Positions 586 through 52,245 of a DNA stretch of 64,000 bases are shown in pieces. The notes under the pieces are model-generated. The model did not search any database. It saw only the letters and a list, made by a program, of their open reading frames with translations, and had not been told where the DNA came from. Location: NCBI RefSeq assembly GCF_050320075.1, contig NZ_CP190018.1. One strand, given 5' to 3'. The stretch is from Escherichia coli. Its GTDB lineage: Bacteria; Pseudomonadota; Gammaproteobacteria; Enterobacterales; Enterobacteriaceae. How positions within the stretch are numbered: the stretch's first letter is position 1; each line of letters starts with the position of its first letter. A program made the position numbers and the translations under genes.

Positions 586-1595
586 TTATTTGTTGTTGCG
601 CAGATCCAGCGCCACGTCGACGATCATATCCTCCTGGCCGCCAACCATCCGGCGCTTGCCCAGCTCAACGAGAATATCCACCGCGCTTAAGCCATAACGC
701 GCCGCCGCCGTTTCACAGTGACGCAGGAAGCTGGAGTAAACACCGGCATATCCCAGCGCCAGCGTTTCGCGATCGACTCGTACCGGACGATCCTGCAACG
801 GACGCACCAGGTCGTCAGCGGCATCCATTAACGCATAGAGATCGGTCCCATGCTGCCAACCCAGTTTATCCGCGGCGGCAATAAACACTTCCAGCGGCGC
901 GTTACCTGCGCCCGCCCCCATTCCCGCGAGACTGGCATCGATTCGGTCGCAGCCCTCTTCCACCGCCGCGATAGAGTTCGCCACGCCAAGACTCAGGTTA
1001 TGGTGAGCGTGCATGCCGGTTTGCGTTTCTGGTTTCAGCACTGCTTTCAGGGCGCGGAAACGGTCACGGATATCGCTCATGTTCATCGCACCGCCAGAAT
1101 CCACCACATAAATACAGGTCGCACCGTAGCCTTCCATCAGCTTTGCCTGCTTTGCGAGATTCTCCGGCGTGGTCATATGGCTCATCATCAGAAAACCAAC
1201 GGTGTCCATTCCGAGCTCGCGGGCATACTGAATATGCTGGGCGGAAACATCGGCTTCGGTACAGTGCGTTGCCACACGAACCACCCGCGCGCCAGCCTGC
1301 CAGGCATTTTTCAAATCGTGAATAGTGCCGATTCCAGGCAGCAACAACGTCGCGATTTTGGCGTGCTTCACCACATCCGCCGCCGCTTCAATCCATTCAA
1401 GGTCGCTATGTGTGCCGAAACCATAGTTAAAGCTGGACCCCTGCAAACCGTCGCCATGGGCCACTTCAATCGAATCCACGCGGGCATCGTCCAGTGCTTT
1501 GGCAATCTGGCGGACATTTTCCAGCGAATACTGATGACGAATGGCGTGCATACCGTCACGCAACGTGACGTCCGAGATATAAAGTTTTTTACCGT

Positions 1596-9123: not shown

Positions 9124-12236
<3,113 letters not shown>

Positions 12237-46555: not shown

Positions 46556-47488
46556 ATGAACTCAATTTTTACCGAAGAGAATCTGTTGGCATTTACTACC
46601 GCTGCGCGTTTTGGCAGCTTCAGTAAAGCCGCAGAAGAGTTGGGTTTAACCACTTCCGCCATTAGCTACACCATCAAGCGAATGGAAACAGGGCTGGATG
46701 TGGTGCTGTTCACTCGCAGTACCCGAAGCATTGAGTTAACGGAGTCCGGGCGTTATTTTTTCCGCAAAGCTACCGACCTGCTGAATGATTTTCACGCCAT
46801 CAAACGCAGCATCGATACTATTTCGCAGGGTATAGAAGCACGGGTGCGCATTTGTATTAACCAACTGCTTTATACGCCCAAACACACCGCACGCTTATTA
46901 CAGGTACTGAAAAAGCAGTTTCCTACCTGCCAGATTACCGTCACCACCGAAGTGTATAACGGCGTCTGGGATGCGATTATTAATAATCAGGCGAATATCG
47001 CTATCGGCGCACCCGACACGCTGCTGGACGGTGGCGGCATTGATTACACGGAGATTGGCGCGATTCGCTGGGCTTTTGCCATCGCCCCGGATCACCCGTT
47101 AGCCTTTGTGCCGGAGCCGATCGCCGAAAGCCAACTGCGTCTCTACCCTAATATCATGGTGGAGGACACCGCACATACGATTAATAAAAAAGTGGGCTGG
47201 TTGCTGCATGGGCAGGAGTCAATTCTGGTGCCAGATTTCAACACCAAATGTCAGTGCCAGATTTTAGGTGAAGGAATTGGTTTTTTGCCGGATTACATGG
47301 TCCGTGAGGCGATGGCGCAATCCCTGCTGGTTACCCGACAAATCCATAATCCGCGCCAGGATTCGCGCATGTTACTGGCGACCCAGCACTCTGCCACCGG
47401 TCAGGTGACGCAGTGGATTAAAAAACAATTTTCGCCAAATGGCATATTAACGGGGATCTATCAGGATTTACTGCATCGGGAGAATTAA
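46556..47488 (+). CDS. yahB: LysR-family transcriptional regulator
   Basis: 310-aa ORF with N-terminal HTH. Confidence 0.88.
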   Translation: MNSIFTEENLLAFTTAARFGSFSKAAEELGLTTSAISYTIKRMETGLDVVLFTRSTRSIELTESGRYFFRKATDLLNDFHAIKRSIDTISQGIEARVRICINQLLYTPKHTARLLQVLKKQFPTCQITVTTEVYNGVWDAIINNQANIAIGAPDTLLDGGGIDYTEIGAIRWAFAIAPDHPLAFVPEPIAESQLRLYPNIMVEDTAHTINKKVGWLLHGQESILVPDFNTKCQCQILGEGIGFLPDYMVREAMAQSLLVTRQIHNPRQDSRMLLATQHSATGQVTQWIKKQFSPNGILTGIYQDLLHREN

Positions 47489-47529
47489 TCGCTGCCAACT
47501 TCCCGATGCGCTGTGAATAGCGGTTTACA

Positions 47530-48624
47530 TCAACCACCTGCTTTCATTACCCATTCAGAGATAAATTTATTACCCGGTACTGGCGGAGAGTACAAATAGC
47601 CCTGCAAAAAGTGAACGCCTTTGCCGATCATTAAATCCGCCTGCTCCTGGGTTTCTACCCCTTCCGCCACGATACTCAGACCAGGCTTACGCGCCAGTTC
47701 GACAATATTGTCCACAATATGACCGGATATTTCGTCCACGCTCGCCATTTGCACAAATGACTTATCGATCTTAATAAAATCGACCGGGAACGCCTGCAAG
47801 TAACGATAGGTCGCATAACCCGTACCAAAGTCATCCAGCGCAAAGGTAATGTTGTGCTGATGAAGGCTGTCAAATATCGCTCTGGCTTCTGGCGTTACCG
47901 GAATAGGGTTACGTTCCGTTAGCTCGAGAACCAGTTTGATTTTATCGTTACCTAATTTCTTAACCAGGTTCAGGCATTCTTTTTCAAATCCCGCAGCCAA
48001 AAAACAACCCGCCGAGACGTTGATGCCAATATGGAAATTGTCCGGCAGCAAATGTTTTACCGGCATCAGAATATCCGCAGTCTGTTTCATCAACTGGCGA
48101 GTCATTATGACGATAAGACCAGATGACTCCGCCAGAGGAATAAACTGATCCGGTGGGATAATTCCCGTTTGTGGATGTTCCCAGCGGACAAGCACCTCAC
48201 AGCCCGTCAGTACCCCAGTCTGCGCGCAGAAAACCGGTTGGATCCACGGTTTAAATTCATGGTTTTCCAACGCCAGACTGATGGCTTCAGGCGTGACGAT
48301 ATGGTGATAGTGATTATCATTAATATATTTGTGACTATTATTACCCGTGGCGGATATGATCTCCGGATTGTACTGAAAGAAAATATCCCGCCAGAAAGTA
48401 ATATCGCTCTGAATCCCCAGTTTCTCAAAGAGCTGTTTCTTTTGATGTGAAATGGTCTTTGCACTGCGATTTCTGTACTGTGATATTTCTGTTACAGACA
48501 TTCCCTGCATCAGCAGCTTGAGTAGCAGTCGTTCTTTCTCGGATACGCTACCAGGCAATGACAAATGAACCGTTGTACCGAACTCTTGCAGAAAAACACG
48601 AAAATCACATGAATTCATGAACAC
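47530..48624 (-). CDS. pdeL: c-di-GMP phosphodiesterase with LuxR-type HTH and EAL domain
   Basis: 364-aa ORF; N-terminal LuxR HTH (LLKLLMQGMSVTEISQYRNRSAKTIS) and C-terminal EAL-domain motifs. Confidence 0.9.
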   Translation of the reverse strand: MFMNSCDFRVFLQEFGTTVHLSLPGSVSEKERLLLKLLMQGMSVTEISQYRNRSAKTISHQKKQLFEKLGIQSDITFWRDIFFQYNPEIISATGNNSHKYINDNHYHHIVTPEAISLALENHEFKPWIQPVFCAQTGVLTGCEVLVRWEHPQTGIIPPDQFIPLAESSGLIVIMTRQLMKQTADILMPVKHLLPDNFHIGINVSAGCFLAAGFEKECLNLVKKLGNDKIKLVLELTERNPIPVTPEARAIFDSLHQHNITFALDDFGTGYATYRYLQAFPVDFIKIDKSFVQMASVDEISGHIVDNIVELARKPGLSIVAEGVETQEQADLMIGKGVHFLQGYLYSPPVPGNKFISEWVMKAGG

Positions 48625-49450
48625 ACCTTTTATCTTTTATCGCTGTTCAGTATGAGTGATTACCTGTGGATTCCTGAGCACACATAAGGGGTAACCATAA
48701 ACATCAGCGATGCCATACGCATAACATCCCACATCACTATCAAAAAGATTATCTTTACCTCTGATGCTCGCTCAAAAACAGTTACGCTAAATACCTTAAA
48801 AAGGTAATCACAAGTCAAACTCAGGAGATAATCACGCAAGAATGCAATATTAAAATTCAGATACTCATTTTTGGTAATAAAGAAGTAGTTGGACTATTTC
48901 AATATTTATAATTTCCCACTACGTATTGACGCCCATTCATGAGTAAAGGCGCATTATATGAATTTAACAATCCAGATCAACTGAAAATACCTCAACCTCA
49001 TAAACACATAGCGTCAACATTCAATGACATAATGAGTAAAGATGTTGGTTATGCATACACGTCATTACTCTATGCCTATCCCTTAACAACCTGCTTTTTA
49101 AGGCTGAATCCATTCAGCAATAGATAGCCAACATTATAACAATGACAATAAAAACAATATTTAAAACAATCAATAAAATATCAGACACAGACAATTAAAC
49201 CTTAAACAACAAACAGTTACATTGATTTTAGTTGATTTGCGCTACGCGTTTCCCATGAATAAAGCGTCATTTCAAATTAGCACCAATATTTACATTAAAT
49301 AAGACTAAGCTTATTGAACATTCACAACAGTCCAAGCGTAGGTTTTGGGCTTCAATAGTTCTTTTCTTTTTTATTATCTGTTGCCTGGCAATCATCAATC
49401 GATACTAAGGGCTTAACTGTACACAGATATAACGTATCAAGAGGTAAGAG

Positions 49451-49482
49451 AAACCGCGCCATATGCAGACATGGCGCGGTTT
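49451..49482 (-). terminator. intrinsic terminator of betT
   Basis: GC-rich stem (ccgcgccat...atggcgcgg) 14 bp past the betT stop, followed on the transcript by a U-rich tract. Confidence 0.7.
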
Positions 49483-49495
49483 TATGCAATAACAA

Positions 49496-51529
49496 TCACG
49501 CGTCCGGGAACATCACGCTATGGCCCGGCGCTTCACGATGGAGATGGATAAAGTTAAGGTGCCGCTCGTACTGATCGAGAATATCGGTGATCACCTGCTC
49601 TTTGCTGTAGTCCATCAGGTCGTTGCCCTGGCTGCCTTCTAACAGGAAAGTTTCCAGCCGGTAGTAGGTCGATTTACCGCTACGTGCGCGGTAGGTAAAG
49701 CCCGGCACCGAATATTGCTGCGGCCAAATCTGATAGACAAAGTTTTGCTCTTCGCCCATATGCACCAACAAATCCAGATGCCCCAACTGTTGTCCCTCTT
49801 CCGGCGGCAGGCTTTTTAGCTCCACGTACGCGCCGCGCAACCGCAGCTCCTGCGCCACTTCTTCCATTGCCGGGTAACAGACCGTCTCCATCATCTGTTT
49901 AGTGTAACGCGTGCCCGGATAATTCATCAGGCGCGAGAGACGTTTTTTCCAGCTCAGGCGATCCTGAAGCCCCAGCGGTCGCGGCGCGGTATCACGGTTG
50001 GCACTTTCACGGCGGTAATCTTCTACCTTCAGAGATTTATACAACCCCGCCATCACGAAGAAAATCACAAAGCTGAACGGCAGCCCCATGATTACCGTGG
50101 TGTTTTGCAGCGCGGATATCCCGTTGGTCATCAGCATGCCGAGCGTCAGCAGGCCAATCGCCACCGACCAGAAGACGCGCAGCCAGCCGGGGGCGTCGCT
50201 GTTGATATCTTTAAGCTGCGAGGTGAAATTCCCCAGCACCAGCGCCCCGGAGTCCGCCGAGGTCACATAAAACAGCAGGCCAGTAATGGTGGCGACGGAG
50301 GCGCTAAAGGTAAACGCCGGATACTGCGCCAGCAGGCTGTAGAAGCCGCGCTCCGGATGGACCATCGCTTCCTCGGCAAATGCCGCGCCGCCGTGGATGA
50401 TTTCATACAGCGCGCTATTGCCGAACACCGAGAGCCATAACAGCGTGAAGGTAAACGGAATAATCAACGTGCCCAGCACGAACTGGCGAATGGTACGCCC
50501 ACGCGAGATACGCGCCAGGAACAGGCCGACAAACGGCGACCATGCCACCCACCATGCCCAGAAGAAGAGCGTCCAGTTATTCATCCACTCAACCGGACGG
50601 TCGAAGGCAAAACTGTTGAGCGTCATGCCCATAAAGCGATTCACATAGTCGCCAACGTTCAGCACCAGCGCATTAAGCAGGAACGAGGTGTCGCCCATAA
50701 ACAGCACGAACAGGATCAACCCCAGCGCCAGCGCAACGTTGAGTTCCGATAACACGCGAATGCCCTTATCGACACCGGAGGTGACAGAGATCGTGGCGAT
50801 GATCACCGACAAGGCGATCAGTGCCGCTTTCGCCGCCATTGAATCGGGAATATCAAACAGTACGCTCAAGCCATAGTTAAGCTGTACCACACCGATACCG
50901 AGCGTAGTGGCAATACCGAAGATGGTGCCGATTACCGCTGCAATATCCACTGAATGACCAATCGGCCCGTTAATCCGTTTACCGAAGATCGGGTACAGCG
51001 CCGAGCGGATGGTGAGCGGCAAATTATAACGATAGCTAAAGTATCCGAGCGCCATGCCCATCAGCGCATACATCGACCAGCCGGTTAAGCCGTAGTGAAA
51101 CAGCGTCCAGACCATCGCCTGACGCGCAGCCTCAATCGTCTGACCCGCGCCTTCCGGCGGCTGCATATACTGCGTTACCGGTTCGGCTACGGAGAAGAAC
51201 ATCAGGTCGATACCGATCCCGGCAGCAAACAGCATCGCCGCCCAACTCAGCAGACTGAATTCCGGTTTGGATTGTTCTGGCCCGAGCTTCACCGAACCAA
51301 AACGCGAACAAGCGATACAGACCACAAAGACAATATAGAGCGTTGCCGCCAGCAGATAGTACCAACCGAAGGTTTTAGAGACCCAGTCCAGCGTGCGTCC
51401 AATCCACAGGGCCGAGAAGTCGCGAAACAGGATCGTTGTCAGGGAAAACAACAAAATCAGTCCGGCGGAAGTGTAAAACACCACCGGATTGATTTTGTCC
51501 TTTTCCCTGCTGTGTGAAAGGTCTGTCAT
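49496..51529 (-). CDS. betT: choline transporter (BCCT family)
   Basis: 677-aa polytopic ORF, divergent from betIBA. Confidence 0.95.
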   Translation of the reverse strand: MTDLSHSREKDKINPVVFYTSAGLILLFSLTTILFRDFSALWIGRTLDWVSKTFGWYYLLAATLYIVFVVCIACSRFGSVKLGPEQSKPEFSLLSWAAMLFAAGIGIDLMFFSVAEPVTQYMQPPEGAGQTIEAARQAMVWTLFHYGLTGWSMYALMGMALGYFSYRYNLPLTIRSALYPIFGKRINGPIGHSVDIAAVIGTIFGIATTLGIGVVQLNYGLSVLFDIPDSMAAKAALIALSVIIATISVTSGVDKGIRVLSELNVALALGLILFVLFMGDTSFLLNALVLNVGDYVNRFMGMTLNSFAFDRPVEWMNNWTLFFWAWWVAWSPFVGLFLARISRGRTIRQFVLGTLIIPFTFTLLWLSVFGNSALYEIIHGGAAFAEEAMVHPERGFYSLLAQYPAFTFSASVATITGLLFYVTSADSGALVLGNFTSQLKDINSDAPGWLRVFWSVAIGLLTLGMLMTNGISALQNTTVIMGLPFSFVIFFVMAGLYKSLKVEDYRRESANRDTAPRPLGLQDRLSWKKRLSRLMNYPGTRYTKQMMETVCYPAMEEVAQELRLRGAYVELKSLPPEEGQQLGHLDLLVHMGEEQNFVYQIWPQQYSVPGFTYRARSGKSTYYRLETFLLEGSQGNDLMDYSKEQVITDILDQYERHLNFIHLHREAPGHSVMFPDA

Positions 51530-51657: not shown

Positions 51658-52245
51658 ATGCCCAAATTGGGGATGCAGTCGATCCGGCGCAGACAACTGA
51701 TCGACGCCACGCTGGAAGCAATAAATGAAGTGGGCATGCACGATGCAACGATCGCGCAGATCGCCCGCCGTGCAGGCGTTTCTACGGGGATCATCAGCCA
51801 CTATTTCAGGGACAAAAATGGTCTGCTGGAAGCAACCATGCGCGATATCACCAGTCAGCTGCGTGACGCGGTTTTGAATCGATTACATGCACTTCCGCAG
51901 GGCAGTGCAGAGCAGCGATTATAGGCGATTGTTGACGGGAATTTCGATGAAACGCAGGTCAGTAATGCTGCGATGAAAGCCTGGTTGGCGTTTTGGGCCA
52001 GCAGTATGCATCAGCCAATGCTTTACCGTTTGCAGCAGGTGAGCAGCCGCCGCTTGTTGTCGAATCTGGTGAGCGAATTTCACCGCGAGTTACCGCGCCA
52101 ACAGGCACAGGAAGCGGGCTACGGCCTTGCCGCGCTGATTGACGGATTATGGCTGCGCGCGGCACTGAGCGGCAAACCGCTGGATAAACCTCTCGCACAC
52201 TCGCTGACCCGTCACTTTATTACTCAGCATTTACCCACCGATTAA
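51658..52245 (+). pseudogene. betI: TetR-family repressor of the bet regulon, interrupted by an in-frame TAG
   Basis: Frame [41 protein letters not shown]...SAEQRL, then TAG at 51922..51924, then the same frame continues [12 protein letters not shown]... to the normal stop at 52245. Confidence 0.85.

Follow-up and report, generated by a model that had tools for sequence, protein, structure and literature searches.

The AT-rich gap that separates pdeL from betT in the window (the whole 64-kb stretch of Escherichia coli DNA that was analyzed) very probably controls the transcription of pdeL and has a small-protein gene, yahV, embedded in it. The H-NS silencing, the Cra and PdeL sites, and the yahV gene of this region are already known for K-12, and the AT-rich gap is real but ordinary and already explained; the functions ascribed below to the strain of the window are argued from sequence orthology to K-12. 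The gap measures 877 bp (48619..49495), from the pdeL ATG (48618) to the betT stop (49496), the pdeL start being the one assigned by PGAP in strain 746, a canine isolate whose gap sequence is 100% identical; identity to K-12-like genomes is 92.9%. The locus corresponds to the E. coli yahC-yahB-pdeL-betT-betIBA region on the strand opposite to K-12, and both the position and the orientation of the gap, between the 3′ end of betT and the 5′ end of pdeL, match those in K-12-like genomes, as judged from the annotation of strain 746 and of the K-12-like strain H8 together with alignment. PdeL in the window shares 99.2% amino acid identity with the K-12-like allele, with residues 1-70, including the HTH, unchanged, and a pdeL with an HTH domain is restricted to Escherichia. 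Elsewhere in the locus, the betI of the window contains a premature stop (TAG at 51922..51924), and the exact 66-base stretch with this stop occurs in two of 5426 genomes.

The GC content of the gap is 34.8%, as against 51.6% in the whole window, which places it in the bottom 0.2% of all 877-bp windows; no stretch of equal length in the window is more AT-rich, and it is also the longest part of the 64 kb devoid of an open reading frame of at least 100 aa. The first-pass annotation had described it as ORF-free and very AT-rich, of which the AT bias stands and the lack of open reading frames does not, as an intact yahV lies inside. The multiple A/T tracts to which it had also pointed are no feature in their own right: tracts of length at least 4 number 17 in the gap versus 14.7 ± 2.6 in dinucleotide-preserving shuffles, counts that only follow composition, and AA/TT phasing at 10–11 bp did not go beyond that of such shuffles. 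Intrinsic curvature, sought as phased A-tracts or a tract excess, was absent from the gap, leaving AT-richness alone among these properties of H-NS target DNA, and high-affinity H-NS motifs resembling TCGATAAATT were not enriched in the gap in a motif scan that was uninformative. At the distal edge of the gap, the betT terminator noted earlier was overlooked by a simple promoter/terminator scanner and confirmed by folding; its hairpin (−23.9 kcal/mol, z = −4.1 versus shuffles) is followed by a U-rich run, and the element is unchanged in K-12-like and O157 genomes.

Table 1. Features of the pdeL–betT gap and its flanking genes in window coordinates, with sequence divergence of the window from a K-12-like genome and the cryptic-clade genomes E1V33 and SCPM-O-B-8794.
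Feature	Position	Strand	Divergence K-12-like/E1V33/SCPM (%)	Basis or remark
betT	49496..51529	minus		
betT intrinsic terminator hairpin	49451..49483	minus		RNA fold; 14-bp stem, then U-rich run UUUCUCUU
Distal PdeL box CIB	49298..49315	minus		Primers 4991/4997; palindrome AATAAG-N6-CTTATT
CIB-to-yahV segment			18/38/41	
yahV homologue	49114..49188	minus	11/32/41	Position orthologous to K-12 yahV; GTG start, 24 codons, VSDILLIVLNIVFIVIVIMLAIYC
Cra (FruR) box	49104..49118	minus	0/0/0	Primer 4695; GCTGAATGGATTCAG
Cra-dependent PdeL box CDB	49090..49103	minus		Adjoins Cra box
CDB segment	49076..49103		25/61/33	
Sigma-70 promoter	48953..48980	minus	0/7/11	TTGATC-16-TATAAT; −35 at 48975..48980, −10 at 48953..48958
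Putative pdeL leader, ~328 nt	48619..48946	minus		Start near 48946 inferred from promoter match and design of K-12 RNAP fragment
Last 177 nt before pdeL ATG			2/14/14	
Proximal promoter-like site	48748..48775	minus		TTGAGC-16-GATAAT; 9/12 match; candidate second promoter
pdeL ribosome-binding region	48622..48631	minus		AAAAGGTGTG; upstream of ATG 48618
pdeL	47530..48618	minus		Annotation of identical strain 746; LuxR-type HTH and EAL c-di-GMP phosphodiesterase; gene controlled by the gap
pdeL four-fold sites			5.9/14.5/21	

In K-12, the betT>yahA spacer (yahA is pdeL) binds both RpoD holoenzyme and H-NS in vitro by genomic SELEX, and the RpoD study gives TTGATC-16-TATAAT as its best promoter (Shimada et al., 2014, PMC3946193). 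Cra binds its box with a Kd of 49 nM; PdeL binds with a Kd of 76 nM, in a Cra-dependent manner, at the CDB next to the Cra box, and with a Kd of 573 nM at the distal, Cra-independent palindrome CIB, where H-NS and PdeL compete (Reinders et al., 10.1101/2021.10.01.462762). According to the same study, loss of hns leads to strong derepression of pdeL, Cra and PdeL co-activate the gene and raise the recruitment of RNA polymerase to a fragment ending at the distal −10, and low c-di-GMP drives PdeL into tetramers, producing a cooperative, bistable switch in which control by c-di-GMP “strictly depends” on CDB (10.1101/2021.10.01.462762). Repression of pdeL by H-NS has been stated independently (10.1101/2022.01.19.477023), and a PdeL ChIP-seq peak lies at its own promoter (PMC8669472).

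These elements were located in the window by means of the published K-12 oligonucleotides, specifically EMSA primers 4991/4997 (CIB) and 4695 (Cra), and primer 4283 (RNAP fragment). The Cra box is identical at 15 of 15 positions to the K-12 EMSA site and is invariant in K-12-like, E1V33, SCPM, and O157 sequences; the CIB half-sites are the same as in K-12, with one substitution in the spacer (C for T), and CIB is kept in cryptic-clade Escherichia L004 and L005. The distal promoter, a 10/12 match and the top promoter match on the gene strand, has the hexamers and spacing of K-12, is maintained among Escherichia clades and in front of the O157 ehaA, and has the K-12 RNAP-recruitment fragment (primer 4283) stopping just beyond its −10. 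Close to pdeL, GGTGTGTT is the sole upstream block common also to the pdeL genes of E. albertii and E. whittamii. In strain E66, an IS1 insertion separates the Cra box from the promoter. Two suggestions of the first-pass annotation, silencing by a nucleoid protein and an extended upstream control region, are supported: the former by the published H-NS SELEX sites and hns derepression in K-12, carried over to the window by orthology, and the latter by the published K-12 Cra and PdeL sites, the promoter, Cra box, and CIB half-sites being unchanged in the window.

On the K-12 model, H-NS on the AT-rich DNA would keep the sigma-70 promoter (48980..48953, ∼330 bp upstream of the ATG) off, and Cra at 49104..49118, ∼165 bp upstream of the putative transcription start, would let PdeL bind the adjacent CDB. 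At low c-di-GMP, a PdeL tetramer would also contact CIB at 49298..49315, ∼195 bp farther upstream; the published K-12 model proposes DNA looping and displacement of H-NS at this step, and the outcome would be positive-feedback, switch-like expression of pdeL. The yahV gene, placed between CIB and the Cra box, would sit inside the proposed loop.

The putative CDB of the window reads CCTTAAAAAGCAGG, against TCTTAATGAGTGGG for K-12 and TCTTAAGAAGCAGG for other strains, and further haplotypes of E. coli vary at the site as well; compared with K-12, five of its 14 positions are changed with the CTTA core retained. The 28-bp segment around the box is the most variable of the gap, with 25% differences from K-12-like genomes versus 5.9% at pdeL four-fold sites. 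Because the CDB is altered at five of 14 positions and the first 70 residues of PdeL are unchanged, autoregulation of pdeL may be weaker or different in the lineage of the window; with a box that varies by lineage and a DNA-binding region that does not, the bistable switch may behave differently in extraintestinal strains like that of the window.

For the rest of the gap, the window was compared with a K-12-like genome and the two cryptic-clade genomes E1V33 and SCPM-O-B-8794, with the four-fold degenerate sites of pdeL serving as the neutral yardstick (Table 1). The phylogenetic footprints agree with the known protein-binding sites, and the DNA between the sites, including the distal gap, evolves at or above the four-fold (neutral) rate. 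Divergence is lower over the last 177 nt of the leader than farther upstream in the gap. No signal of leader structure was obtained from the minimum free energy (z = −1.2) or from the RNAalifold covariation term (−0.08 on five Escherichia sequences); the sole leader structure kept is a small hairpin with the pdeL Shine-Dalgarno in its loop, which is weak evidence. An upstream ORF in the leader (MASLMFMVTPYVCSGIHR), with a stop position common to five of five sequences, was rejected, as its substitutions are amino-acid-changing and conservation runs beyond the stop.

The better conservation of the last part of the leader, relative to the DNA immediately upstream, would also be expected if pdeL were transcribed mainly from the proximal promoter-like site and the conserved 177 bp were promoter/operator DNA, not leader, a reading that we regard as unlikely. 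The 9/12 match of the site favors it, as do two SELEX peaks of minor-sigma holoenzymes whose K-12 coordinate, 331456, falls on the site after conversion in this analysis; however, these peaks are of low intensity (3.5 and 4.9) on an array with a resolution of ∼100 bp (PMC5493296), and the hexamers are only partly retained in E1V33 and SCPM. The K-12 data also favor the distal promoter, which the RpoD study names as the best of the spacer and at whose −10 the fragment ends to which Cra and PdeL recruit RNA polymerase. Given the proximal site and the weak minor-sigma peaks, the estimate of 328 nt for the leader may be mistaken or incomplete.

An unannotated small regulatory RNA, which the first-pass annotation had thought the gap could hold, is very improbable. 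The gap is long and has orphan promoter-like matches on both strands, but these number four versus 4.4 in shuffles, the terminator scan finds none inside the gap, and the best-conserved part has no fold-energy or covariation signal; an Rfam scan of 47000..51000 at E ≤ 10 returned only two chance-level matches, with E of 3.9 and 6.4 and scores well short of the gathering cutoffs, and no small RNA is annotated in the gap in the RefSeq records examined. Still more remote is the prospect that a genuine protein is encoded by the 62-aa ORF at 48939..49127 on the plus strand. Its frame is open over 62 aa in the window and over 61 aa in K-12-like genomes, but the ORF overlaps the pdeL promoter and Cra box in antisense, is interrupted in the sister clades E1V33 and SCPM, has no NCBIfam match, and is without annotation in the RefSeq records examined; it was judged non-coding, in agreement with the first-pass annotation, which had found the ORF not credible for want of a ribosome-binding site.

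The same annotation had seen no credible ORF at all in the gap, a statement refuted by the intact 24-codon yahV, which is below the ORF sizes considered there. The gene most likely encodes a 24-residue membrane peptide, and the translation is hydrophobic throughout; an AAGG lies 11 nt from the GTG, and inspection by eye between CIB and the GTG gave no convincing or conserved yahV promoter. The frame is open in eight of eight sampled long-type haplotypes with a Cra box, and its stop codon sits within that box; in one rare variant, a C>A change in the Cra box makes the ORF one codon shorter. In K-12, YahV (b4730) has been detected by means of a chromosomal SPA tag and immunoblot (VanOrsdel et al., 2018, PMC6001520). 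Annotation follows haplotype, with “protein YahV” in 1718 K-12-like genomes, “hypothetical protein” in 293 intermediate genomes, and none in 1721 window-like genomes; NCBIfam has no YahV model, and the window variant has no exact occurrence in a collection of 15 billion proteins. The gene has been described as restricted to phylogroups A, B1, and C (PMC9976479), a claim weakened by the intact but unannotated frame in the window-like haplotype; this confinement probably reflects annotation, not biology, and yahV is intact yet without annotation in ∼1,700 complete E. coli genomes.

Compared with K-12, the yahV of the window has eight nonsynonymous and no synonymous differences, with 17 of 24 residues identical, and there was no sign of purifying selection on the gene in these comparisons, as its divergence (11/32/41%) exceeds that of the four-fold sites. 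Interruptions break the frame in the cryptic-clade genomes E1V33 and SCPM, and no counterpart was found in ehaA-type genomes. With these interruptions, no ehaA-type counterpart, differences that are all nonsynonymous, and a stop codon in the Cra box, yahV looks like a young, fast-evolving, E. coli-specific ORF within regulatory DNA.

The locus takes two forms in E. coli: among 5426 genomes, 3728 have the long gap and 1402 have an ehaA upstream region, and ∼1,400 genomes match the gap only at its terminator end. In O157:H7, the autotransporter adhesin gene ehaA stands between betT and pdeL, at 573 and 141 bp from them, respectively; an EhaA-like gene also ends just upstream of pdeL in E. albertii and E. 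whittamii, and the PdeL alleles divide along the same two locus forms. The O157 betT-ehaA spacer shares with the window the core promoter (AGTTGATTTG...CATATAATGCGC) and an identical Cra box 15-mer, which is followed after 23 nt by an AATAAG-N6-CTTAT palindrome; 135 bp separate the Cra box from the −35, versus 138 bp in the window. Three ehaA-type haplotypes retain these features. When the terminator is left out, the O157 spacer aligns locally to the gap with a best z = 3.8 versus shuffles, and the common 15-mer and 12-mer (CATATAATGCGC) are not expected by chance. An earlier value of z = 15 was discarded as an artefact of the common 42-nt terminator. The simplest reading of these sequences is that the K-12-type pdeL promoter region and the O157-type ehaA promoter region are the same ancestral region.

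If so, the long gap may be mainly an evolutionary remnant, either an ehaA upstream region orphaned by loss of ehaA or a region that was split by insertion of ehaA, and its length would reflect history more than need; we lean toward this account, which complements the control-region explanation. The gene order and counts of the two forms, the EhaA-like gene before pdeL in E. albertii and E. whittamii, the identical Cra box, the palindrome, and the core promoter, the similar distance from the Cra box to the −35, and the alignment score all argue for it, as does a distal gap that diverges as fast as four-fold sites or faster. However, tblastn recovered no EhaA coding trace in the gap, the last ∼200 nt of the leader are without a match in the O157 locus, and the spacers are ∼67% alike outside the motifs, so that the shared transcription factor sites could in principle be convergent; moreover, cryptic-clade Escherichia are of the long form and E. 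albertii and E. whittamii of the ehaA form, a distribution compatible with either loss or gain of ehaA. More tentatively, and with somewhat less than even confidence in the whole, we suggest that the gap is orthologous to the ehaA promoter region, that the Cra/PdeL/H-NS switch originally controlled an ehaA-pdeL unit and may still do so in about a quarter of genomes, that yahV is a young ORF, and that a lone GATC in the −35 explains the effect of dam on pdeL. An ehaA-pdeL unit, if real, would tie a biofilm adhesin to c-di-GMP breakdown; no link between ehaA and pdeL regulation was found in the searched literature, and the elements that ehaA has in common with the gap (Cra box, palindrome, promoter) hint at a connection between adhesin expression and control by c-di-GMP in EHEC that could be tested.

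The GATC in question, at 48975..48978, is the only one in the gap and falls within the promoter −35; in its place, the sister clades and the ehaA form have TTGATT. Among the genes reduced when K-12 lacks dam, yahA/pdeL ranks second by significance, with a log2 change of −3.08, or ∼8-fold (PMC11741368). We hypothesize that the −35 GATC directly links dam to pdeL expression, which would be a simple, testable explanation of the strong dam dependence of the gene. No report of the two-form locus, the shared ehaA upstream elements, a young yahV, or the −35 GATC was found in the searched literature.

Among known systems, the gap is closest to the K-12 pdeL (yahA) region described by Reinders et al. 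(2016, 2021), Shimada et al. (2014), and the Schnetz laboratory, with the same position, Cra box, CIB half-sites, promoter, and AT-rich composition. The two differ by ∼2% in the leader, by ∼12% in the distal 400 bp, and at five of 14 positions in the CDB; H-NS binding and hns derepression, seen in K-12, would extend to the window by orthology. K-12 YahV is a predicted single-pass membrane protein of 24 aa, and the allele in the window has the same location, strand, frame, GTG, length, stop in the Cra box, and hydrophobicity, with seven of the 24 residues different and all eight nucleotide differences amino-acid-changing. Directly after the betT terminator, O157:H7 and other ehaA-positive E. 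coli have the same Cra box and core promoter as the window, along with a palindrome of the PdeL type; in their form, however, this promoter region precedes the 3984-nt ehaA, with pdeL following 141 bp after and encoding a PdeL allele with only 93% identity, a yahV-like ORF is missing, and the palindrome is on the downstream side of the Cra box, not upstream (CIB) as in the window. The H-NS-silenced promoters of bgl, proU, and csgD resemble the gap in having several hundred bp of AT-rich DNA on either side of a competent sigma-70 promoter, a specific DNA-binding activator that competes with H-NS, and an occasional IS insertion, as in strain E66 at pdeL. Unlike in those systems, activation of pdeL requires Cra as a co-factor, and the gene under control itself encodes the anti-silencer, which is also a c-di-GMP phosphodiesterase, making the switch self-reinforcing.

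The betT-pdeL locus of E. coli occurs in two forms: in 1402 genomes, ehaA, encoding an autotransporter adhesin, lies between the two genes, and in 3728 genomes a long gap separates them, as in the window (877 bp). The region upstream of ehaA shares its core promoter and an identical Cra box with the pdeL promoter region, and it also contains a palindrome of the PdeL type. [quoted passage not shown] In strain FDAARGOS_1250, a rare single C>A substitution converts GCTGAAT of the Cra box to GATGAAT and also shortens YahV to 23 residues, so that one mutation strikes both. In strain E66, an IS1 element lies between the Cra box and CDB on one side and the core promoter on the other; rclR replaces the betT side, so that the locus has lost the bet genes together with yahV, the Cra box, and the distal Cra-independent PdeL palindrome (CIB) but retains the core promoter.

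Coordinates of features at the betT-pdeL locus and in the loci compared with it
Feature	Sequence	Position	Strand	Detail
Hairpin	window	48632..48664		
GATC	window	48975..48978		
CDB	window	49090..49103		
yahV	window	49114..49188		
betI	window	51658..52245	+	stop TAG at 51922..51924
ehaA-type spacer (L050)	NZ_CP038380.1 4326000-4336100	9491..10063		compared with window 48940..49120
IS1, strain E66 (L049)	NZ_CM173951.1	3478..4175		equivalent to window ~49055
Cra box C>A, FDAARGOS_1250 (L056)	NZ_CP069571.1	about 690..700		

The yahV open reading frame is intact in the window and is unannotated in the sampled window-like genomes, which total about 1,721. Since PGAP names yahV only where the peptide matches that of K-12, the claim that this gene occurs only in phylogroups A, B1, and C probably stems from an annotation artefact.

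On the betT side, betI of the window contains a premature stop (Q89 to TAG), whereas strain 746, otherwise the closest genome, encodes Gln at this position; the exact 66-base stretch containing the stop was common to only two of 5426 complete genomes. The BetI repressor is probably inactive, and betT, whose transcription is directed towards the pdeL gap, may therefore be derepressed.

At the pdeL end, the Shine-Dalgarno of pdeL would be displayed in the loop of a conserved, small hairpin (CUGAACAGC...GUGUGUUCA), in which the cryptic-clade Escherichia SCPM-O-B-8794 carries one C-to-U change that retains the pair; the evidence is too weak for this hairpin to be called a regulatory element. Separately, PdeL matches of 99% and 84% were recovered on short contigs of assemblies assigned to two unrelated genera, Stappia sp. 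BW2 and a Collinsella MAG, respectively; these contigs look like Escherichia contamination of the two assemblies.

The sole GATC (Dam site) of the gap falls within the −35 hexamer, TTGATC; this hexamer reads TTGATT in the sister clades and likewise in the ehaA form. When dam is mutated in K-12, pdeL ranks second by significance among the genes with reduced expression, with a log2 change of −3.08 (PMC11741368).
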